Shown: positions 1 through 33,204 of the stretch, in pieces | How the letters are laid out: each line of letters begins with the position of its first letter | Numbering within the stretch: position 1 is the stretch's first letter | Assembly: GCA_043381765.1 (NCBI GenBank) | Contig: JBHJMP010000867.1 | Location: forward strand, 1-33,883 | Length of the DNA stretch: 33,883 bases | Direction: 5' to 3' | Origin: Collodictyon triciliatum | Taxonomy: Eukaryota | Notes under the pieces: generated by a model | The model's input: the letters and a program-made list of their open reading frames with translations, nothing else | Told to the model about the DNA's origin: nothing | Databases searched by the model: none | Position numbers and translations under genes: made by a program

Positions 1-102
1 CAATTTTTTTTTTGTTTTAAAATAAGTAGATAGTGGAGTGCCTACATTTTTCACATGGGCTGTAGCATGCAAAATCACTACGAGCATAAGCTTTGAGGGT
101 AC

Positions 103-16289
<16,187 letters not shown>

Positions 16290-16309
16290 ATGAAATATTA
16301 GTCAGGTAA

Positions 16310-16445
16310 TAAAAGAAAAGAAAAGAAAAGAAAAGAAAAGAAAAGAAAAGAAAAGAAAAGAAAAGAAAAGAAAAGAAAAGAAAAGAAAAGAAAAGAAAAG
16401 AAAAGAAAAAGAAAAAGAAAAGAAAAGAAAAAAAGAAAAGAAAAG
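16310..16445. repeat. (AAAAG)n microsatellite
   Basis: Visible pentamer array immediately upstream of the first EML coding exon. Confidence 0.95.
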
Positions 16446-16765
16446 ATCTAAAGTGCAATATCAGCATGTTTGCCCAAGCCCTTCACAGTTTATTCGCTCA
16501 TTTTGCAGCCCTTCATCCTGCCAGGCTACAAACTCTGATTCATAGGAGTCGAGAAGCATGTTAGGGTGTTGGATGCGGTTCTTCATGGGCGTCTACTCGA
16601 ATGGTCACGCCAAGATGCTAATTGGACGATCTTCTGCCATCTGTCTTGTTCTCTTCGCTTCAGCGTGCCATTGGGTTGATTCGCTTTCTGAGAGCAATAG
16701 TTTTCGCTTTTGTGAACAACCCTCTGGATTGGTGGATGGCTTGAGTTTATATGGCTCACGACGGA

Positions 16766-17360
16766 NNNNNNNNNNNNNNNNNNNNNNNNNNNNNNNNNNN
16801 NNNNNNNNNNNNNNNNNNNNNNNNNNNNNNNNNNNNNNNNNNNNNNNNNNNNNNNNNNNNNNNNNNNNNNNNNNNNNNNNNNNNNNNNNNNNNNNNNNNN
16901 NNNNNNNNNNNNNNNNNNNNNNNNNNNNNNNNNNNNNNNNNNNNNNNNNNNNNNNNNNNNNNNNNNNNNNNNNNNNNNNNNNNNNNNNNNNNNNNNNNNN
17001 NNNNNNNNNNNNNNNNNNNNNNNNNNNNNNNNNNNNNNNNNNNNNNNNNNNNNNNNNNNNNNNNNNNNNNNNNNNNNNNNNNNNNNNNNNNNNNNNNNNN
17101 NNNNNNNNNNNNNNNNNNNNNNNNNNNNNNNNNNNNNNNNNNNNNNNNNNNNNNNNNNNNNNNNNNNNNNNNNNNNNNNNNNNNNNNNNNNNNNNNNNNN
17201 NNNNNNNNNNNNNNNNNNNNNNNNNNNNNNNNNNNNNNNNNNNNNNNNNNNNNNNNNNNNNNNNNNNNNNNNNNNNNNNNNNNNNNNNNNNNNNNNNNNN
17301 NNNNNNNNNNNNNNNNNNNNNNNNNNNNNNNNNNNNNNNNNNNNNNNNNNNNNNNNNNNN
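16766..17360. other. Assembly gap (595 N)
   Basis: Run of N between the divergently oriented EML and SAM-NagD genes. Confidence 1.
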
Positions 17361-17529
17361 TCGGTCCCATCCCCACCGCACAGCCGTCTCTCAATCTGAC
17401 GGGCTTCGTTTCTATGTTCGCAGCTTTAGTACAGACCAAAGCAGAGGTTCTTTCTTTTTTTTCTTATAATCATATTTTAGCCATCATTTTACTTGATTGC
17501 CAATATGGAAGAATCTGCCACCATTAAGC

Positions 17530-20323
17530 ATGGATTATCTGCACGTAGAGCCATTGGTTATAGGGTTCCAGTCCTCTGCCGACGACGTTTCTGCGTGGCT
17601 CAAGCAGGAGGGTTTTCACGCACCAGACATCGAAACTCTCAGTGGATTCAATGGTCGCTCCGTTTTAGCTCTTTCCAAAGTCTAGTTTTCTTCGTTTTCG
17701 TTTTTTTTCGTTTTTTTTTCGTTTTTTTCGTTTTTTTCGTTTTTTTCGTTTTTTTCGTTTTTTTTCGTTTTTTCATTTTTATGTTTGTGTTTGTGTTTAT
17801 GTTTATGTTTTATGTTTATGTTTATGTTTATGTTTATGCTTTGGAATGTGGAAGTGGGTGTCTTTGCTCAACAATTCACTACTTTTTTTTCGCAGAACGA
17901 TGCGAAGGAGCTTTTGGGAACTGTTCGTGGAATACGATTGTTTTACGCAAAGTCGGAGCAATATAAAAGATTATTGGAGAAGGAGGGTGATTGATTGTCA
18001 ACTCTGTTTGATATACATCTCCTTGAGTTATATGTGTCAATTTCCATGTCATAAATCTTGTGTTGTAATAAGCATATCACAATGTTTCCATCATTAGAGA
18101 CCGACCGCGCATCAAAACAATATGGAACCCAAATAGATGTAGACGATCCACTCAGCGCAGAAAAGGTATTATGTTTTCTTTCATATATGGCCCATTCCTT
18201 TTCCGATATAAAAATGTAGAACTCGCCTTGAAATATAATTTAAACAATTTAATATGGCCACCGACAGCCGCTTTTTTCTTGTAGAAGCATCAACACTCTT
18301 TGCCACATACTTCCGTCTCAAGAATGTATTTCTTTTTCCTGCTTTATGTTTACCGTCTGACTATTTTGTAATTAAAATAGGTGAGGAAGAAGGAGGGATT
18401 TATCATCGATATGGACGGTGTAATCTATCACAGAGGCATCGTCCTTCCTGGAGTAGACCGGTATCTACCCCAATCCATAGCTAACTTGGATTAAATATCA
18501 TAATTGCAGTATTGTTCTCGGTTGTCTAAGTGATTCTAAAATGAACTTCTTTTTTTTCATGGCCAGTTTCCTTCGTTGGATAAAAAACAATGGAAAGAAT
18601 TATCTCTTTCTGACAAACTCAAGCGACAAGTCACCGCAACAACTGTCACAGAGACTTGCCGGGATGGGAATCGAGGTATCCACTCATTTAATTCAGAAAG
18701 TAATCCTGATATATCTGCTTCAGGGATATTAATTTATCAAATATGAAGCTTATGTCTTTGTTCATGTCGGAAGTGATACTTGAACATCCCATTCCAATAC
18801 GTGGTTCAAGTCGCTCTAAAATCCTTTTGCAGGTCCCTCCATCCAACTTCTACACTTCCGCCCTATCTACGGCACACTTTCTGAACACTCAAAAGCCAAA
18901 GGGGTCAGCTTATGTGATTGGCGAAGGTGGTCTGTTGGAAGCGCTTGCTGATGTTGGATACAAGTATCACTCAGCTTTTCAAATTATTCATTTAATCATC
19001 TGGAATATATCCCATTTGTTTTAAAACTGTTTCTCTATTATGATGCATCACCATCCTTCGTATTTCCGCCTTATTTTGTTGTTTTGATTGCTCCGTTAAT
19101 CTTTCAAAATGATTATGTTAGAATTACAGATGTAAACCCCGATTATGTGATTGTTGGAGAAACTCGAGACTATGATATTGCCAGAATCGAAAAAGCCATT
19201 CAGCTCGTGCAAAGCGGTTTGAATAGCTTACACAATTCTATATACTTTATGTGCATAAAATATACTCATTCCAAGCTGCTGAATTCATTTCTCTTTCAAA
19301 AGATTGAAACAAGTACATTTTACACTAGCTAACCATTTTCCTTAATTCAGGCGCCAAGCTTATCGGTACAAACGTTGATATTTATGATCGTGTTGGAAAG
19401 AATAACATGCCAGCTTGCGGCTCTCTAATCAGCCCGATCCAAATATGCACTGGTATATATATATATGCATATGCATGCATTCCTTCTTCGATAACTTTTC
19501 TTGTTTTCGATATCACTTGTCCCAAATGAAAACTAAAGACCATAAGACATCGTTTTTTCTTCTGGTTTTTTCTTCTGGTTTTTTCTTCTGGTTTTTCTGG
19601 TTGGTATGTTGTTTATTTTTTCTTCTTTTTTTTTTTAATGTTGAAATATTCTCGCCTGGAATTAAACATTCCTAGAAGAGAAAAACCAATCCAGAAATCA
19701 TTCTTAAAATCAAACATAATATAGGAAGTCGAGCATATTTTTGTGGGAAACCTAATCCAATGATTATGCGCTCTGCTCTACGAAAGCTTCAAGTAGCCAG
19801 GTATGTCAATCCGACATTCATACACGACTATATTTTTATCTTCAAATGTCCATACTTTCTTCTTTCCAATAATGATACCCCGAGATAAAGAATAAGTAAT
19901 ATAATTCATATACTCTCATATGTATACGCATAATAGCTCACACGCTGCCATCATCGGAGACCGAATGGATACAGACATCATCGCTGGATTAGAGTCTGGA
20001 ATCGACACCGTCCTTGTCCTCAGTGGTGTCACAAGCCCAGCAGACCTCATCAAGTTTTCATACTCCCCCAGTATGTCATATGTGCCTTTTACATAATTCA
20101 AATAATGATAAACAAAGCAAAGCAAAGCAAAGCAAAACGAACGCTAGGAAATTAATGAATGAACGAATATGTAAGGGACTCACGTTCCTATTTCTTGAAC
20201 AAGAAAAAAAAAAAGAAGAAACATGGTGATAAACTGTGGCAGTCCATTTACTGATGCTCAAATCTTGTAGATTACATCTTCAATGGCATCGGCTCCATCG
20301 TAGACCATGTTTCGATCGAATAA
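17530..20323 (+). CDS. nagD: N-terminal SAM-like domain fused to a NagD-type HAD subfamily IIA phosphatase; about 11 exons
   Basis: Spliced product: SADDVSAWLKQEGF...SGFNGRSVLALSK|NDAKELLGTVRGIRLFYA (SAM-like), then FIIDMDGVIY (motif I), FLTNSS (motif II), TSALSTAHFL, AYVIGEGGL, PDYVIVGETRDY, LIGTNVD, PACGSL, GKPNPMIMRSAL (motif III), IIGDRMDTDIIAGLESGIDTVLVLSGVT (motif IV), TAA at 20321-20323. All junctions are GT-AG and in phase. The start is uncertain because another exon may come from the gap (17361-17446). Confidence 0.9.
17685..17837. repeat. Compound T-rich microsatellite, (TTTTTTTCG)n then (TTTATG)n, intronic
   Basis: Visible arrays in the intron 17680-17895 that splits the SAM-like domain. 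Confidence 0.9.
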
Positions 20324-20608
20324 CTCCACCATAAATAGTCATTTGGATGCCAAATCTCTAGAGAGGTGTAACCCAGCTATCATGTCATGTATTTGTATAT
20401 TCTTTTTATTGCCATGGCATGTGATATGCTATTGCTGCTCTTTGTTCTAGTCGTGCCATTTCCCTTCTTCACATATTTCCCCCTTTCACGATTCTTCTTT
20501 TTATGGTCTGAAGAGAGAAAGAAAAGGAAGGGAAAAGAAAAAGAAAAAGGTAGTATAAGGAGAAACAAAATATGAAGGACGAAAAGCAACCTCCCATTAC
20601 CCATCTCG

Positions 20609-23600
20609 CTAATCCTCCGCCGCAAAGTATACTTTCCTCTCGTGTGTCATGTTAAAGTCAGTCAGGGAGGACTGGACCATGTTTGTGGCGCGCTGCAGCA
20701 TGTCGCTGATGACAGACTCAGGCGTGTTGTGTTGAACCATCGTGTGGTCCGGGTCAGCCAGCAAGAGCGCATAAGGCAGCACAACCCCGTCAATCATCAC
20801 AAAGTCGTACCGCCCAAGTTCCAAGTGCGAGTTGAGATCAATCAGCTGGCTCGGGCATGTGACCATCAGCCCGAAAGGCACTTCGCGCGAGGGCACCTCC
20901 TCCAGATAGATTCGGCGCGCCTCTGCAGAGAGCTCCAACACATTCGCGCCCACAACCACAAACCCGCAATCAAACCCCTCGTTGAAGAGCCGATTCACCG
21001 CCATCAGCTGCGCTCGGAACAGACTTTGGTAGGCCGGCTGCACAAAGCGGCTCAAGCCTTGTATGCTCAGGAATGGCTCTGCATGCAACGCCTCGAACGG
21101 CCGAGCGCCTTGCAGCTCTGTGTACGCATCGGCAGATGATTTGTCCATGACCAGCGCGGTCGTGAGTCCAGGCCTCCCCTTTTCTGTGGCGGTTTCTCGC
21201 AGTTTCTTGTAGATAAGCTCTGTGTATATGTGCTTCAGAATCTCATCCACGTTACCATAGTCCCGAAGCAGCTCGGTAATCAGGACCGTGGGCTGCAAAC
21301 GCGAGCGCCCAGCCCCTGTGAGTCGGATGATGGCCAAGACAGGCTCGATTTCGCTCGAGGTAAGCTCGTTGCCGCTTTGCAGTTCCTGTAGCACGTGAAT
21401 CACATTCAATGGATGGACCTTCTGCTCGAGGATGGGCCCACTTGCACTCACGCAGACAATTCGCTTCGATAAAAAGTCCTGCTCTCCTTGTGCATTGGGC
21501 GAGCTCCAAAGACGCATGGCAATCATATCGCTTTCCTCCAGAGTTCTCTCTTCTATCCCGACAGCCCCATGGTAAATGCATCCAGATTGGAAATCAATTG
21601 TGATTTTCTGATGGTCAAAACATACGAGATTCTCAAACTCCTCCGAGCAAAGAATGATACATGGCTTCCGGAGCCTATGTGCAAACTCTTTACAAAAGGC
21701 CTCGTGTTGGTGCTCTGTGGTGAGAATAAGAGCCCCAATCAACTCCCCAAACTCAAGCTCTTGTAGCTGCTCTACTGATTTGCGTGTCATCAAGACAAAG
21801 TCGCCCACCGATATCTTTTGAATATCCTCTTCCTCGTTGATAACAATCAGCGTTCTGCTGGCTGCTCCCTGGAAGATTGTCGACTTTCCCGATGCTAAGA
21901 GACTGGCAGAGTGTGCTTTCTGAGCCGTCGGTGTCACCATACCCAGGAGCGTTTCTGTGGATGAGAGGACAGAAACTACATTCAGGAAGTTTGGCACAGA
22001 GGAGTAGCATACGTCCACCAATGCAGCTATTTTAGCAGCGACTTCAGGGTATTGAACAGACAGTCTGTTGAGAGCCTCTCCGCTCAGGATTAGCTCAATC
22101 TTATGGGCTTTAGCCACTTTGGCAACATGATATATCGAAAGGTAAATCTCTCGTCTGCTCTCGTCCGAGACTTCCAGGAGATAATTGCCCATCGCGTCGA
22201 TGCGAATGTACGGGCTCTTTTTTGTCATTTGAGACACCTGCTGTCCGAGATTGATTGCCACAAGTTGACTTGTGATTGCTGTGGTGGTTATTGCTGAAGA
22301 TGTTGCAGTTCCATATGTTGTGGGTCGATGATGATTCTGCGATGAATCCTTTGACCTCCCATGCATATTCTCTGGGTACATTGGTGACCAGAAAGTGTTT
22401 CTCACAAACTTGAAAATACCCTGTGTCAAGTCATTGGTTCCCAGGGAGAAAAAAGGAAGAAACTTGTAGCGCCTTGCAAATGAGTTCATAATTTCGGCAT
22501 ATTGTTCGATTTGTAGAACGTTTGCAGGGACCTCAATCATAACACCCATGCTTCTTGGAGAGACTCCATAAGACCGTAATATTTTCAGAGTGACCTCTGC
22601 ACATTCTGGAAGCTGCTCAGGATATCGGACGCAAGAAAAAACGGGGTCCATTTGCATCCCACTCTTGCCGATTTCCCCAAGCACTTCCAACTCCAGCATG
22701 AATGTTGGTCCATTTACTTTGGATAAGAGATAAGGTGGCCCGCGGAAGCCAACAATTGAAAATTCTTGCAGTAAATCCGTAAAAATGTTCCCGCCGATGA
22801 GAGTCTTCATTTCGCGTAGTTTAAAGTCCAAAAATCTGTATGTTCGCTTTTGCCAAAAGGGGCAAGCAGCAGAGATGGAGCAGATTACGCTTGCGTGAGT
22901 CCTTTTGAAAAACGATATTGCTGATGGACGTGACCAGCCGGTAGGAATGTATGCAGCTATTCTGCGGGATATCCTCTTTATTACCGTTGGATGCTGGCGC
23001 AAAACCCGGACATCTTCCAGCAACGTCGGCCAAAATTCTCTGGGTGAATGTATCCCCCAAGTTCGAAGCTTTTCTAGCTGTGCTTTTTCTGTCGGCGTGA
23101 GGCCACCCCGTGCATCCCCGTCCAAAAGTGACATCACTTCATAGGCAATCAAAGCTCGCGGGTTGATTCCCACGTAATGGCAACTGACCTCTGCCCGCAG
23201 TATGCAGAGTCCATATGCAAAACTGCTCTGGTTAAGCTTGCTGATACGCCAAGCATCCAAGTAGTTGTTGAGAATCCAACCAACTTTCCTCCGAAGATTG
23301 GGCAACCTCTCAATATCGATCTTCATATTCACCTGGCGAACAGGCAACTCTAGAGGCTCAACGGCGCAAAATGTGTCTATCAGACGTTGAAGCCGTGACG
23401 CTCGGTCGTATTTTCCTTCTTCTCGGAGTCTGTTTGACTTTGCTTGGAGGAGCGATTTCGCTGACGCGGCTAGATAAATCATCCCTTGATTGCCATCCAC
23501 GGTTATCAAGACCCCGTCTGTGCTGAGAACTTCTTCTACCCATTCTGCCCTATCCGGGTCCTCACACCGCACGTCCTCGATAAAGTATTGGATGCCGACT

Positions 23601-26511
23601 ACAGAGGCTATATTCAGTCCGATGGACTCCACTGACGCATGAGACGTCTTTGTCCCGTACATGGCAACAACCCCAAGACTCTTTTTCATGGCTGAAATGT
23701 CAGTTGGTCGAGTGTTTGTAGTGATAAGAAATTCCACCTTGTCTCCTCCAGCGTTGGTACGAATCAAATCTTCAGATAATGCATCGGTACCACTCAAGGA
23801 TGTGTGAATGGCACCAGATGCAGCCATGGATGTTGCAATACCGGATAGATTTGTGCTTCCTATCAAAGGGACAACGACGCGCCCGTCCGGGCTTGTACCT
23901 TCAATGAATCCGTTGGGATACATTCGAATATCACATCCTTTTTTGCGCAAGCCGCCGATATCGATGATAGTTCGGCGGTCGTGATAGCTCAACGGGTCTG
24001 TCAGGTCAGTTGGGAAGGTGTAATCGGATGATTGAATGATTAAAGGGACTTTTTGGCCCAATTCGCTAGGAAGGCATGTCTCCATACCTTTCACCAACTG
24101 CGTCAGGAAGGATGTGTAGCTTTTTCTTGTTGATGAATCTGCCTGATGGTAAAGCCAGTGCCAAATAGTGCTGAGGGGGTTAATGTCACCGGGTATTGGT
24201 GTCCATGTCGAATGGGATGCATCTTTGAAAAACTGGACAATTCGCTGGTCGATTCCATCCATGAAGAGAGCATCCGCCAGTTGGTTGATTTTCTTTGGAT
24301 GGAGCCACTTCAAAAAGCTACGGAGAATGTAGATGTCGGTCGAACGATCACATATCTTTGCTATGTTGAGCTTTTCAATCTCAGACAAGCAAAATGTAAG
24401 GATGTGTGCCGGGTCCACTGGTAAGTTTACTGTTTTACGTTGTGATGTTTTTGCATCCTCCAACGCTTTCTTAATCTGCTCAGTAAAATGAACGTTTTCT
24501 GGATTTGTCATGTCCCACGCCTCTGCTTCTCGTAGGATTTCCTCGGCATCGTTCAGAGAACCTGTCCAAACCTTTGAAGACAACATCATAAAAAAAAAGG
24601 TTGAAAATGTGCTTCAGAATATTTATTTTTTTGTTTGGTTTTTTTTTTTTTTTTTTTTTTGCATAATATCATTGCTATGAGAATAACACACTTTTTTCGG
24701 TCCGTTCAACTGTCTCAATGTCAAATATTGCCTAACGCCATTGTCATCGTCAAATGCAAGATAAACATCAACATCTGCAGTTACATCCCCCTGAAATTAA
24801 AAAAATAGCGGCAGAAGCCAATATTTTTTTTATTTATTAATCGAATAATTTATATAATTTTTTATTTATTGGTATTACTAGTTTTTTCTATATCTTTCTA
24901 AATATTTCTTAATAGTTCTATTTGTAAAAGAAGGGTATGTTTTAATATGAAATGAAAGCAAATGAAAAAGGAAATATATTAGTATATTTTTTCTAAATTA
25001 ATTGGAAACATACTTGAGCAAGCGCTTCACCCCACCCATAGGACGAATTCATATAAAGTATTCTTGATCGTCTTTCAGACTCTAAATTTCTATTTGTCCC
25101 GAAAATTCTTCCAGTAAATCCGGTGCTTGTATCTAGACAATACACATACGCACATGACGTCCTTTCGATAGACGGCCTCTCGTAATCTATCCCTTGCGCC
25201 TGCTTCTGAATAATCACAGCCATTTCAGCGTAATCAGGGTGGTAGAACAAATGTCTGTACTGCTTCAGCAGGTTGACAAGTTCGTCAGAGTCTTCCCAAT
25301 CATCGAGGGACTCGAGCCACTGCTTCAGAGATAGGGAACTAAACAAGGCTGCCGGCGAAGCGTAGGATGTCTCTGCCTGGCTCTGAAAAAATCGGTAGAT
25401 CTGCCTTGTTAATGTGTCTGACATCATCCTTGATTTGATTGTGGTCAGCAACTCGAAAACACGAGTATGTTGGGAGTAGTTTTTGAGGACTTGCTGGTCT
25501 CTGTAGGATAGCACGCGTTCGGTGTAGTTGCCAGCCCAGTCTCGCTTAACGGCCTCACGCACGTTCTCTGTGCCTCGAATGTTTAGAAAGGTTTCGTACT
25601 GGCCAGGAAAAGCAGCAAAGCTTGTGTCTTCCATTGTGCCAGTCGAGCGCACTGCAACTGTAACACCATGAACGTCCTCGCTCATAAGGTCCACAAACTT
25701 GATGGCTTGGGATGTGTTGATTTCTTCCCAGACCAAAAGGCTATCCCTGAGCTCGCACAGCTGCTCGGTGACTGAAGGGATTGTTTCCTTCCAGGATTCA
25801 ATCGAAGAGTGATTCTTGAATAAAGATTTCAGCCTCTCGATTTTTTCAGAGATAAGGACAAATGACATCTTAAGATTTCCAGAACTTCCTTGTGAGAATG
25901 AACGACGCAGTTGAGGGGATGAATATGAGACAAACTTTGATGGCTCAGTGGAATCATGCGAGAGTTCGGCTTGGATGTGGTTGATCAATTGAACACAACG
26001 TTCTGCTAAATCCTCTCTTGTTACCTCCATATATGCCGTGTCAATTGCTTCTCGAAGCGTGTCATCCAGCTGGATGTTCATGAACCATTCATGGATTTGG
26101 CTTTGAACGGCCCGTCGGTTCTGATTAGGTGATTTACTTAAGATTAGCTTTAAAAAAAAAGCGGATAAAATGGAAATAGCCTGCAAACTTTAAATATGGT
26201 ATTCATATGTCCAAATATGTCTGTAGGGGGTATAAAAACCAAAACAGAAAGGGATATGAGAGAAACAAAAAGGATACCTTTGTATCAGTAGTGTTTAGAT
26301 TAAATGTAAGGTGGATTATTCCATCATTTAGGGTTCTCTTTTCGTCGACTCGATGGTTATTTGTAAAGTGGCGATATGCAAGTGGTGATATAATTCGGAA
26401 AGGCTTTCCAGGGTCTCCATTTAATGCAAGACGAGAAAGATTCGCGCCTTTGCCACCAACACGACCGATTTCTGTTGAAGCTGGGTCCTTTGGGTTATAT
26501 ATCATTTTCAT
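20609..26511 (-). CDS. ppsA: PEP synthase (pyruvate,water dikinase)-like protein, about 1800 aa, with a duplicated degenerate C-terminal His-domain + PEP-binding module
   Basis: Exons 26511-26278, 26120-25014, 24790-24692 and 24571-20609 join in phase 0. Motifs: VGGKGANL, VAVRSTGTMED..F.GQYETFLNI, MAVIIQK, SSYGWGEALAQ|GDVTAD (ATP-grasp); GTKTSHAS..LNIASVVG, ITVDG (His domain); LRAE, GINPRAL, RFLDFK..MKTLIGG, VGFRG, MIEVPAN, FSLGTNDLTQ (PEP barrel). Further 5' exons are possible near 26766-26887 and 26998-27034. The symbol denotes homology, not proven activity. Confidence 0.88.
26121..26277 (-). other. GT-AG intron with a U12-consensus donor in the dikinase gene
   Basis: Donor AAG|GTATCCTTT. 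3' region GCTAATCTTAAGTAAATCACCTAATCAG has only a partial U12 branch match. Splicing gives DTK|NRRAV in frame. Confidence 0.5.
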
Positions 26512-27088
26512 ATCTGCCAAAGGATAAAAATAAAAGTTTTTTTTTAGAAATGAATAGAAATTCCTCTCGAGACATCTTTAATATATTCATGGATATGTTT
26601 ATAACTGAATAAGGTGATATCGAAGCTATTTCCTCTCATTTATTTATTACAAACTGAACTGAAGGTGCGCATTAGAAGGAAAATTATGCTTTAAAAAACT
26701 ACGGGCCATGAACGAAGATAATATTCACGATCAATTTTCTTTGAATCGTATAAAGTGGGGAAAACCTTGATGGCCAATTTTGATTTCTCCAGCTATCTCT
26801 TGGGCAAGGCCAGAAAGAAGATTGGTTGAGTTCGACCGAGGAATCTCCCATGTGACCCTTTTACGATACAACTTGTTTTGAGTTCGACAACCAAGACGGT
26901 TTTGTCTCTACTTTTCTAGGTATATCTTATTTTATGGTATTTTTGTTATTACATTCAAGTGGTGGGTGAATTATCCGTCAAAGTTAAGGCTGCTTACTTT
27001 TGTAAGGTGTCTCCTCGTGGAAACATCGCTTGAGCTATGAAAAAAAAAAAAGGATTCTCGTTGGACATTGAAGTATTTCCAGTCTAAG

Positions 27089-31376: not shown

Positions 31377-32294
31377 TCAAGATATGTGCATCCTGCCACA
31401 AGCTGACACGATACTAGCCGAATATGACACATTTGCTTTACGGAATCGTGATGGAGAAGCCGTCTTTCCGTGATGGGTGGGCATAGCTGGAGCATGACCT
31501 TGGCTGTGAGCGCTTCCATTCCCAAGATGAAGCGATGCACACTTCAGACTGGGCAAAATAGCATTTGTATGACCGTGTTTGTCAGCTGGAGTCCTTCTAT
31601 GACCAATACAGGGAGATGCAGAATGATGCAAAGGAACAGCAGGTTGGGCGTATTGCTGCAGAGTGGAGGTTGAGGATGAAAGTGAATAGGAGTGATGATG
31701 CGCATGTGTTTGCCCATCCAGCAGCGAGGAAGCAGCAGATTCATCAGAGGCCAGCAGCTTCTGTTGTGATGTGACATCCTGAGCAAAAGCCTCCATCATG
31801 CGGGAAATCTTGTCGTAAGGACAGCGTAGGCGGAAATGAAGCACCGCAAGGAAGTCTACCTCCAGCGCGTTGACATCGAGCAAGGCAATCTCGGCAAGGT
31901 TTGCAAAAGTTGCGTTGTTGTGGGGGATGTCTTCCAGCGTCTTTGTGGCAAGCAGCAAGCCAACCAGGAAAAGCGGACGCACGTTGCGGACCGTCAAGGA
32001 AATCCCTTTGGCGCCCACATAACGCTGCATCAGCACAAGACCTGTCAACACAGCCTCATCCGAGGCCACATCGTACTCGCGCACAAGCCGCAGCATCACC
32101 TCCACACTCCGCTCGATGCCCACCACATCAAAGAGCGTTTCCCTTGCTTTGTGGCTCGCTTCTTGACTGCGGCTGCAACTGGCTTGTAGATACGCTGCGA
32201 TGCGCTCGTGAATCTCTTGGCGCGTCTCGCTGTACTGCGTGGCCATGACGGCTCGGCTGAATGTGTCGTCGGCGTCGTAGCGGTGTTGGCCCAT
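31377..32294 (-). CDS. Single-cyclin-box cyclin (PHO80/cyclin P-U-like), 305 aa, intronless
   Basis: Cyclin box: EAVLTGLVLMQRY...LTVRNVRPLFLVGLLLATKTLEDIPHNNATFANLAEIALLDVNALEVDFLAVLHFRL, followed by a His/Ser-rich low-complexity tail. Confidence 0.88.
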   Translation of the reverse strand: MGQHRYDADDTFSRAVMATQYSETRQEIHERIAAYLQASCSRSQEASHKARETLFDVVGIERSVEVMLRLVREYDVASDEAVLTGLVLMQRYVGAKGISLTVRNVRPLFLVGLLLATKTLEDIPHNNATFANLAEIALLDVNALEVDFLAVLHFRLRCPYDKISRMMEAFAQDVTSQQKLLASDESAASSLLDGQTHAHHHSYSLSSSTSTLQQYAQPAVPLHHSASPCIGHRRTPADKHGHTNAILPSLKCASLHLGNGSAHSQGHAPAMPTHHGKTASPSRFRKANVSYSASIVSACGRMHIS

Positions 32295-33204
32295 GTCTGC
32301 CTTATCTTGTAACTTGGTTTTACTTGGTCTTGATGTCCAGTGAATTCAATCCTTGAGCAATTAAATCAGCTCCATTATATCTCCTCCTTTTTATATCTAC
32401 CGTCTCCCGCATTGACTTTTGTCTTTATAGTGACCTGCTATATGGCCGCGTATTATTTATCCTGCTTTTTTTTTTGTGCGGTTTTCTTCTGTGATGGAAT
32501 CGCTGCGCTTCTATGGGTGTGTTTGGTGGGCTGTTGGGCTTCGGCTCTGCATGACGCTTTGTCCACTCGTCGTATTCTAAAGTCTTTCCAAGTTTTCTGC
32601 AAACAGCCAAAGCCGAATGATGCTGCGCGTCGTAATTGTGCCTGGCATTGCGTCTTTGTGACATCGTTTGTCTGATATCCCTATCGCCTTAATCAGGCTT
32701 TCCCTCGAGGAAGGAAAGAAATCGGCTGTGTCTTTGCGGTATTCTGCTCTGATAGGAAATCGCCTGCTTCGCTGGTTGCGGATGGTGACGTTTTGACGGT
32801 GCGTGGGTGATGCGTGATGGCGTCGTTATTTGTCGTGGGCTTTGTCTGTGGTGGGCGAATGCGGAAAGGAATTGTGATGGTGGCGAGTAATGTAGCGCGA
32901 TAAAGTCACCGTTTCCTTGTTACATTTAGGTGTAATAACTATTCAGCTTCCGTCTAGTGTCCAACAGTGCACAGAAGACATGTACATAGAGCAAAGATAT
33001 AAAAAAAAATATATGGAAATATTGTCTGCTTTAGCTGAGAGTATAGTCCTTTTTTTTTTTCTCTTTCTGAATAGTGCAAGATTTTGTAGGGATATCTGGC
33101 CGGTTGTGGAGCGAGGGCGTGATACAAGTAGGAATCTTCCATATATTTATTGCAACAAGAGCTCCCGGCTTCCTATTTTCGCAGACTAGAACGAGTCTGA
33201 GTTC

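Follow-up and report, generated by a model that had tools for sequence, protein, structure and literature searches.

Why would a protist protein of the phosphoenolpyruvate (PEP) synthase type carry, behind a full set of ATP-grasp, His swivel and PEP-barrel domains, some 430 further residues that look like a second copy of the last two? The question is raised by a gene on the minus strand of a 33,883-nucleotide contig of Collodictyon triciliatum (the window, meaning the whole stretch analysed). A preliminary description made from this DNA had read the tail as a catalytically dead module with an inferred role as a single-chain pseudo-dimer or a regulatory element. Our analysis confirms the dead His domain and barrel and adds two features that had not been foreseen, namely a probable origin within a bacterial family and an altered first module.

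A spliced gene shared with Diphylleia

The gene consists of six exons separated by five GT-AG introns and encodes, up to a single terminal stop, a protein of 1841 aa (Table 1), close to the earlier estimate of ~1800 aa. Its exon junctions and N terminus agree with two transcript-derived proteins, P0005 and P0006, of the collodictyonid Diphylleia rotans, whose orthologue is 76% identical across exon 6. By domain, identity between the two eukaryotes amounts to 76% (ATP-grasp), 81% (His1), 88% (barrel 1, the most conserved region), 70% (His2) and 66% (barrel 2). The 41-aa N-terminal extension has no hydrophobic signal (hydropathy of the Diphylleia N terminus, 0.23) and, judged on hydropathy, no evident targeting peptide. 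In a search of the organism's own genome, the window gene was the one PF02896 locus, and the tail was also single-copy.

Table 1 Positions of exons, domains and altered sites of the PEP-synthase-type gene in the window
Feature	Positions	Strand	Remarks
Exon 1	26998..27026	-	Start codon 27026; opens the 41-aa eukaryote N-terminal extension; GT-AG intron; matches start of Diphylleia isoform P0006
Exon 2	26766..26857	-	Remainder of N-terminal extension; collinear with P0005/P0006
Exon 3	26278..26513	-	ATP-grasp domain begins; GGK-motif Lys retained
Exon 4	25014..26120	-	ATP-grasp (PPDK_N), VRS-motif Arg retained; Pfam PF01326 E=8.6e-21; 72% identity to Diphylleia
Exon 5	24692..24790	-	ATP-grasp domain; junctions are those of transcript-derived protein P0005
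Exon 6	20609..24571	-	ATP-grasp end, His1, barrel 1, His2, barrel 2, stop
ATP-site motifs, eukaryote-only changes	24026..24088	-	DxE Asp to Gly (24088-24086); QxR Arg to Ser (24028-24026; Thr in Diphylleia)
First swivel domain (His1)	23471..23872	-	Phospho-His codon 23641-23639, regulatory Thr two residues earlier; PF00391 E=3.3e-11
First PEP barrel	21950..23293	-	Eight strands; Arg, Arg, Arg, Glu, Asn, Asp ligands retained; catalytic Cys to Ser (22084-22082); PF02896
Second, dead swivel domain (His2)	21560..21895	-	Phe at His position, codon 21697-21695; 70% identity to Diphylleia, 35% to P0007
Second, dead truncated PEP barrel	20612..21466	-	Strands 2-7, without strands 1, 8 and Cys-Gly; dimer-interface loops kept; 66% identity to Diphylleia, 34% to P0007

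The neighbouring genes are eukaryote-like (a many-intron WD40 gene, a HAD hydrolase and a cyclin) and, together with the five introns and the Diphylleia transcript, rule out bacterial contamination. Contigs from RNA libraries of three studies overlay parts of exon 6 at ~98-100% identity and low depth. All their coding differences from the gene are synonymous (7/7), including the four that fall in barrel 2 (4/4); none of these contigs spans an intron or reaches the Cys-to-Ser codon, and they do not amount to proof of transcription or splicing.

Elsewhere in the window, a long minus-strand gene with many short exons (about 1-16500) has, by eye, the look of an EML5/6-type WD40 microtubule-associated protein, an intron-rich NagD-type HAD hydrolase occupies about 17497-20340 on the plus strand, and an intronless cyclin of the PF08613 family (E=3.5e-12) lies at 31377-32345 on the minus strand. 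A short frame at 17497-17682, SAM-domain-like by eye, adjoins an assembly gap (16767-17360) and may be a fused N-terminal exon of the hydrolase gene. Within the PEP-synthase-type gene, GC3 is 0.70 in barrel 2 (20612-21466) versus 0.46-0.52 across the remainder. Barrel 1 carries a low-confidence Ser/Thr-rich insert after helix 6' (about 22350-22270; model residues 500-540), found in the two eukaryotes only and poorly conserved between them, which is possibly a regulatory loop.

The tail is a duplicated His domain and PEP barrel

The tail goes back to an ancient duplication, within the protein, of the PEP synthase His domain and PEP barrel. All the motifs quoted earlier are present in the minus-strand frame 21910-20609, which continues the open frame of the first swivel domain and barrel, and the proposed second copy, 433 residues long, is borne out by profiles and folds. 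Specifically, these 433 residues alone match the NCBIfam PEP synthase profiles PRK06464 (E=2e-9, profile positions 363-720 of 798) and TIGR01418 (E=3.6e-7). Profile-profile comparison with family profiles pairs His2 with His1 (probability 94.9, E=4e-8) and barrel 2 with barrel 1 (probability 99.9, E=1e-36), the crossed controls giving 0.4 and 0.2. A model of the tail alone (pLDDT 78.5, pTM 0.63, from 9 alignment rows) resembles the PEP synthase barrel of 9DAE (220 aligned, Z 18.3, rmsd 3.4) as well as the 2E28 swivel domain (112 aligned, Z 13.2, rmsd 2.7), and its best Foldseek match is 2OLS (E=3.5e-10); the top ESM Atlas match for the tail (0.92) is a cluster carrying PEP-utilizers and PEP-utilizers_C. 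The likeness to a His domain and PEP barrel on which the preliminary description had staked its claim was thus found by NCBIfam, profile-profile and fold matching. The HMMER-type check that it proposed gave a divided answer: the NCBIfam PEP synthase profiles match the tail, whereas Pfam profiles see nothing in it (zero matches at E<=1). A sequence search of the PDB with the tail reached E=0.045 at best.

Pfam's blindness, the faster evolution of barrel 2 relative to barrel 1 (66% versus 88% identity) and its higher GC3 (0.70 versus 0.46-0.52) could be taken as signs of a relic in decay or of a fault in the assembly. However, the tail is also part of the complete ORF of a Diphylleia transcript and of 31 bacterial sequences, which refutes an assembly artefact, and the differences seen in the RNA-library contigs are synonymous, so that we consider this explanation highly improbable.

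The second module is dead and truncated

The phospho-His and the three Arg, Glu, Asn and Asp ligands are invariant in the first modules (31/31). Among the 33 second modules, the His and the Mg-binding Asp are absent throughout (0/33 each), and the Mg-binding Glu and the Arg of the GFRG motif persist in 2/33 and 4/33, respectively (some rows being near-duplicates). The loss of the phospho-His and of most PEP/Mg ligands, claimed at first for the window gene, thus extends to the family; the window gene itself has Phe aligned at the His position, as had been noted, and Diphylleia has Ser. The Cys-Gly after the last helix was found in none of the second barrels (0/33 family copies). What the second modules keep is an Asn-Pro (31/33 and 32/33), two Gly (31/33 and 32/33) and the Asp after helix 6' (28/33). 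In the models, barrel 1 has eight strands and barrel 2 six, equivalent to strands 2-7 (strand numbering read off the alignment); the homology proposed for this part stands, but for a partial barrel. As far as the alignments tell, the second module has lost all chemistry but retains the dimer-contact part of the barrel.

A probable built-in partner for the first barrel

Pyruvate phosphate dikinase (PPDK) is reported to be active only when two chains dimerise through their PEP barrels, with swivel domains proposed to couple the chains (PMC5556012); the same barrel dimer interface occurs in PpsA (10.1101/2022.08.11.503304) and matters in Enzyme I, in which G356S at the interface impairs activity (PMC13598208). 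All 56 residues listed for the PPDK interface, between 657 and 821 (Table S3, PMC5556012), map between strand 3 and helix 6, a part that barrel 2 keeps, and the parts absent from barrel 2 hold none of them. Forty-five of the 56 were placed by ungapped anchors from plant PPDK, and of these the 31 that bury 18 square angstroms or more were used. At these 31 positions, the mean modal frequency in barrel 2 is 0.51, versus 0.39 at other positions (p=0.003 by permutation), and identity to the canonical residue is 0.31 versus 0.19 (p=0.007), p-values that are optimistic because the 33 rows are related and the map was carried over from plant PPDK via ungapped anchors. Canonical identity at 10 active-site positions is 0.06.

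A four-domain model (27 rows) reached pLDDT 84.5 and pTM 0.80. Since His1, barrel 1 and His2 make up only ~0.7 of this chain, barrel 2 would have to be placed confidently relative to barrel 1, with the caveat that the pTM may reflect likeness to solved homodimers, which AlphaFold knows. The interface has drifted in places: in barrel 2 of the window gene the Asn663-equivalent is Glu and the Gly667-equivalent is Ser (Diphylleia keeps Gly), barrel 1 has lost its Asn-Pro, and no neat complementary loop-pairing pattern between the barrels was seen. We take the Gly667-equivalent to be the position altered in Enzyme I G356S.

On the strength of the interface conservation and the four-domain pTM, we think it fairly probable that the tail serves as a built-in pseudo-dimer partner subunit for barrel 1. 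Of the two roles suggested initially, the pseudo-dimer is thus the better supported, by the retained segment, the conserved interface and the pTM of 0.80, and a regulatory ligand site the less likely. Barrel 2 would most likely fold back on barrel 1, one chain doing the job of a PpsA, PPDK or Enzyme I homodimer, with the dead swivel domain probably parked as a fixed brace. His2 is not essential, since 13/31 family members are without it.

Two other roles for the tail have to be weighed against these data. In the first, the old site of barrel 2 would bind a metabolite and tune module 1 as an allosteric sensor, in the manner of the dead halves of eukaryotic phosphofructokinase or hexokinase I. 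Such a role is compatible with a pseudo-dimer; the module has long been conserved (the two eukaryotes are 66-70% identical in it), and the allosteric network of Enzyme I passes through the dimer interface (PMC13598208). However, the positions of the old site show no conservation of other residues in their place (modal frequency 0.36, under the background of 0.39) and barrel 2 is without strands 1 and 8; this unconserved site in an open barrel makes a regulatory ligand site unlikely. Alternatively, the tail could act between chains, barrel 2 pairing with barrel 1 or 2 of another molecule in oligomers or filaments, or scaffolding other proteins. Interface conservation would be explained equally well, and archaeal PpsA forms 24-mers via its PEP barrel domain (10.1101/2022.08.11.503304); yet a single-chain model already attains pTM 0.80, and the linkers permit fold-back even without His2, where only ~20 residues part the barrels, which renders an arrangement between chains improbable.

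The need for dimerisation in PPDK, PpsA and Enzyme I is described as an open question (PMC5556012). A natural single chain that joins a live barrel to a dead one, in versions with and without the dead swivel, allows a direct test of half-of-sites and alternating-site models.

An altered first module in the eukaryotes

The first module had been described as complete. This is true of its domains, all of which are present, but three conserved catalytic-site residues are changed. The barrel Cys is replaced by Ser in the window gene and in Diphylleia; it is Cys in 29/29 bacterial first modules and 12/12 canonical rows. In both eukaryotes, the DxE Asp has become Gly and the QxR Arg has become Ser or Thr, residues that are kept in 27/27 bacterial rows and 6/6 PPDKs (ATP-site count with 5 of 34 rows dropped, the anchor motif not being found in them). 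We take the changed Asp and Arg to correspond to PPDK Asp321 and Arg337; a structure of PPDK R337A is on record. The ATP-site Lys, Arg, Glu and Gln are retained in the eukaryote first module, as are the phospho-His and all PEP/Mg ligands. The barrel Cys is catalytic in PpsA (10.1101/2022.08.11.503304) and its substitution impairs Enzyme I (PMC13598208); our literature search for Cys mutants returned nothing.

Because the live module of both eukaryotes is changed at three residues that are invariant elsewhere, PEP-synthase activity is doubtful. The phospho-His and the PEP/Mg ligands are under strong constraint, but the barrel Cys and two ATP-site residues, Asp and Arg, have changed, which probably makes this a PEP/phospho-His protein that is slow or re-tuned and differs from a standard pyruvate, water dikinase. 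The three changes suggest that annotation pipelines would mislabel the gene as a working PEP synthase.

In the organism's genome, 3 contigs carry ATP-type PEPCK and pyruvate kinase occurs at several loci, so that the window enzyme would be needed for neither direction. A PDRP/PSRP regulator (PF03618) was not found in this genome, the assembly of which is fragmented and its genes interrupted by introns. A more radical possibility, bearing on module 1 and open to combination with the pseudo-dimer reading, is a non-catalytic sensor of PEP/pyruvate or adenylates, or an enzyme with another substrate, the pseudo-dimer holding the sensor barrel in shape. The absence of the ATP-site Asp and Arg (kept in 27/27 bacterial rows) and of the Cys (kept in 29/29) from both eukaryotes would fit such a protein, as would the 88% conservation of barrel 1 and the presence of PEPCK and pyruvate kinases. 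Against it stand the retained ATP-site Lys, Arg, Glu and Gln, the phospho-His and all PEP ligands, and some ATP-site changes are tolerated, given that in rifampin phosphotransferase Lys and Arg are essential and the Mg-binding Glu is dispensable (PMC4844700). We regard a non-standard or non-catalytic role as possible but doubtful, a slowed dikinase accounting for the remainder.

A bacterial family with the same architecture

The architecture had been put forward as one not recognised as described. No published account of it was found in the literature searched, but it is not unique to this genome: a search of other genomes found it in Diphylleia rotans and in 31 bacterial sequences, which form a family of large, mostly signal-peptide-bearing proteins. 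Members with names come from Omnitrophota, bar one Desulforudis MAG protein. A search with the tail against 1.84 billion representatives gave 16 matches and a long-protein search 13. Among the bacterial relatives, P0007, from Ca. Omnitrophota and 2596 aa long, comes nearest, with 39% identity to the eukaryote gene over 1834 columns, tail included; the similarity begins at its residue 297 and covers the enzyme part only. In a 401-genome sample of the phylum of Ca. Aceula meridiana, a tail profile matched 12 genomes (E<=1e-12): 10 matches were inspected, nine having a second barrel and one being a plain PpsA, and the other two are loci L082 and L092 (L092 by frame length). Of the 31 assembled first modules, 18 precede both a His2 and a barrel 2, and the other 13 have a barrel 2 behind them but no His2.

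A crude test found a hydrophobic N terminus in 11/15 bacterial proteins and in none of the Diphylleia proteins, and 6/15 bacterial proteins have a common C-terminal tail motif. P0020 and P0024 are without signal peptide, and secretion is therefore not the whole reason for the design. Of 70 loci found with P0022, eight have the full two-module enzyme and 56 have no PEP-enzyme match in the DNA stretches examined; thus, leader and tail also occur on proteins with other cargo. The window gene has the dead His2 and truncated barrel 2 of common origin that mark the Omnitrophota family, and is without its signal peptide and flanking leader and tail.

Several members deserve separate mention. A leader of ~345 aa and a short C-terminal motif (L082-L151) are common to many Omnitrophota proteins with differing middles, an arrangement like a polymorphic export cassette. 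Four highly diverged two-barrel members (L174, L175, L176 and L177) are without the regulatory Thr before the phospho-His, and L176 sits inside a 59,091-aa frame. The Asn-Pro of barrel 1 is gone in all 18 members with His2, probably through a single event, and its Pro is kept in 12/13 members without His2; His2 possibly took over the lost contact. P0023, a 430-aa archaeal protein (Geothermarchaeales), comprises a His domain and barrel only, with an atypical sequence around the His, and similar 400-aa clusters occur in the ESM Atlas.

Further scans yielded no additional members: 56 candidate stretches found in GTDB with P0019 gave no confirmed case, at least 77 GTDB loci found with alignment A1 encode single-module PPDK-sized proteins without a second barrel, and the best 80 of 173 matches confirmed in a metagenome scan with A4 had no second barrel, several ending at contig edges. 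A shorter-protein search returned one match, a plain PpsA; it missed P0019, which indicates low sensitivity, and it is no proof of absence from other eukaryotes. The window organism and Diphylleia rotans are the only two eukaryotes in which the gene is known.

Origin of the eukaryote gene

In a barrel tree of 20 second barrels and 18 of the 31 first modules, the second barrels (20/20) form one clade (SH-aLRT 100) whose subgroups mirror those of the first barrels, which argues for one duplication inherited in cis. A mixture-model tree of His1 and barrel 1, built from 51 rows with canonical PpsA, PPDK and Enzyme I among them, gives the two eukaryotes Omnitrophota P0007 as their sister (100/99) and L168, from a genome of the Ca. 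Aceula meridiana phylum sample, as the next branch (100/99); all of these sit inside the His2-bearing clade (100/100). A second tree (24 canonical rows, with 10 long or redundant family rows left out) agreed with this placement, the program flagging long branches around their group, and a barrel-2 tree independently joined them to P0007 and P0019 (support 99). An AU test, picked after the first tree, rejected a union of the 11 bacterial His2 rows without the eukaryotes (p-AU 7e-8).

This nesting within the bacterial family makes a horizontal transfer of the enzyme module alone, from Omnitrophota to a eukaryote, the most likely origin of the gene. The two-barrel design would have arisen in bacteria, with the module as cargo of large, mostly secreted Omnitrophota proteins, inside which a self-sufficient monomer would need no partner search. 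The ancestor of the window protist and Diphylleia would have taken the enzyme module without signal and tail regions and gained introns. Such a transfer into a deep-branching protist would be a hint on the ecology of Omnitrophota, linked so far, in the accessible part of the literature, mainly to prokaryote hosts. It is conceivable, if rather unlikely, that the protist went further and domesticated the enzyme cargo of a secreted Omnitrophota protein into a doubly altered one, no longer a PEP synthase but a PEP/phospho-His sensor or phosphotransferase that dimerises with itself and has acquired new chemistry; if true, this would point to close contact between Omnitrophota and protists. The compact spliced gene should be easier to express than bacterial carriers of 2,000-59,000 aa, and therefore offers a route into the enzyme cargo of Omnitrophota giant proteins.

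Comparison with known systems

PpsA (TIGR01418, PRK06464; 2OLS, 8A8E, 9DAE) provides the best profile and fold match for both modules and shares the order of ATP-grasp (PF01326), His swivel (PF00391) and PEP barrel (PF02896) and the phospho-His and PEP/Mg ligands of module 1. Unlike PpsA, which has about 790 aa, the window protein has 1841 aa with large insertions, an extra dead His domain and six-strand barrel, Ser in place of the Cys and a changed ATP-site Asp and Arg. The full-length Diphylleia orthologue (194/598 and 179/740 bits) falls below both NCBIfam equivalog cut-offs for PpsA, as does window exon 6 alone below the one applied to it (112/598 bits); the bacterial barrel-only members P0013 and P0020 exceed the NCBIfam PpsA cut-off.

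PPDK (5JVJ, 1VBG, 1KBL) and Enzyme I of the PTS share the folds and are active as PEP-barrel dimers (PMC5556012; PMC13598208), but these dimers consist of two active chains, whereas the window protein has one live and one dead module. In the tree both fall outside the two-barrel family; the window gene does not group with the PPDKs, nor is TIGR01828 (PPDK) its best profile match.

Pyruvate/PEP dikinase domains are frequent in the giant Omnitrophota proteins called Archaeovorins, and the accessible part of the preprint mentions no dead duplicate or eukaryote copy (10.1101/2023.11.21.568195). The closest relatives of the window gene are proteins of this type, one of them in a 59,091-aa frame; unlike them, the eukaryote gene lacks the signal peptide and the leader and tail regions. 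In the literature searched, with subscription journals mostly outside its scope, we found no description of the His and barrel duplication or of a eukaryote copy, and no paper joining Omnitrophota, giant proteins and phosphoenolpyruvate synthase. The accessible part of a second Omnitrophota preprint held nothing relevant to the duplication, and a look-up by sequence found no prior description.

Enzymes that keep a dead duplicated half as partner or regulator include eukaryotic phosphofructokinase, hexokinase I and the trypanosome AdoMetDC prozyme. The window protein likewise keeps its dead copy, in a different fold. The dead halves of phosphofructokinase and hexokinase keep a ligand site, and no site of this kind is evident in the window tail. 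New here are a eukaryote gene with introns, the origin of that gene and the three additional residue changes in it.
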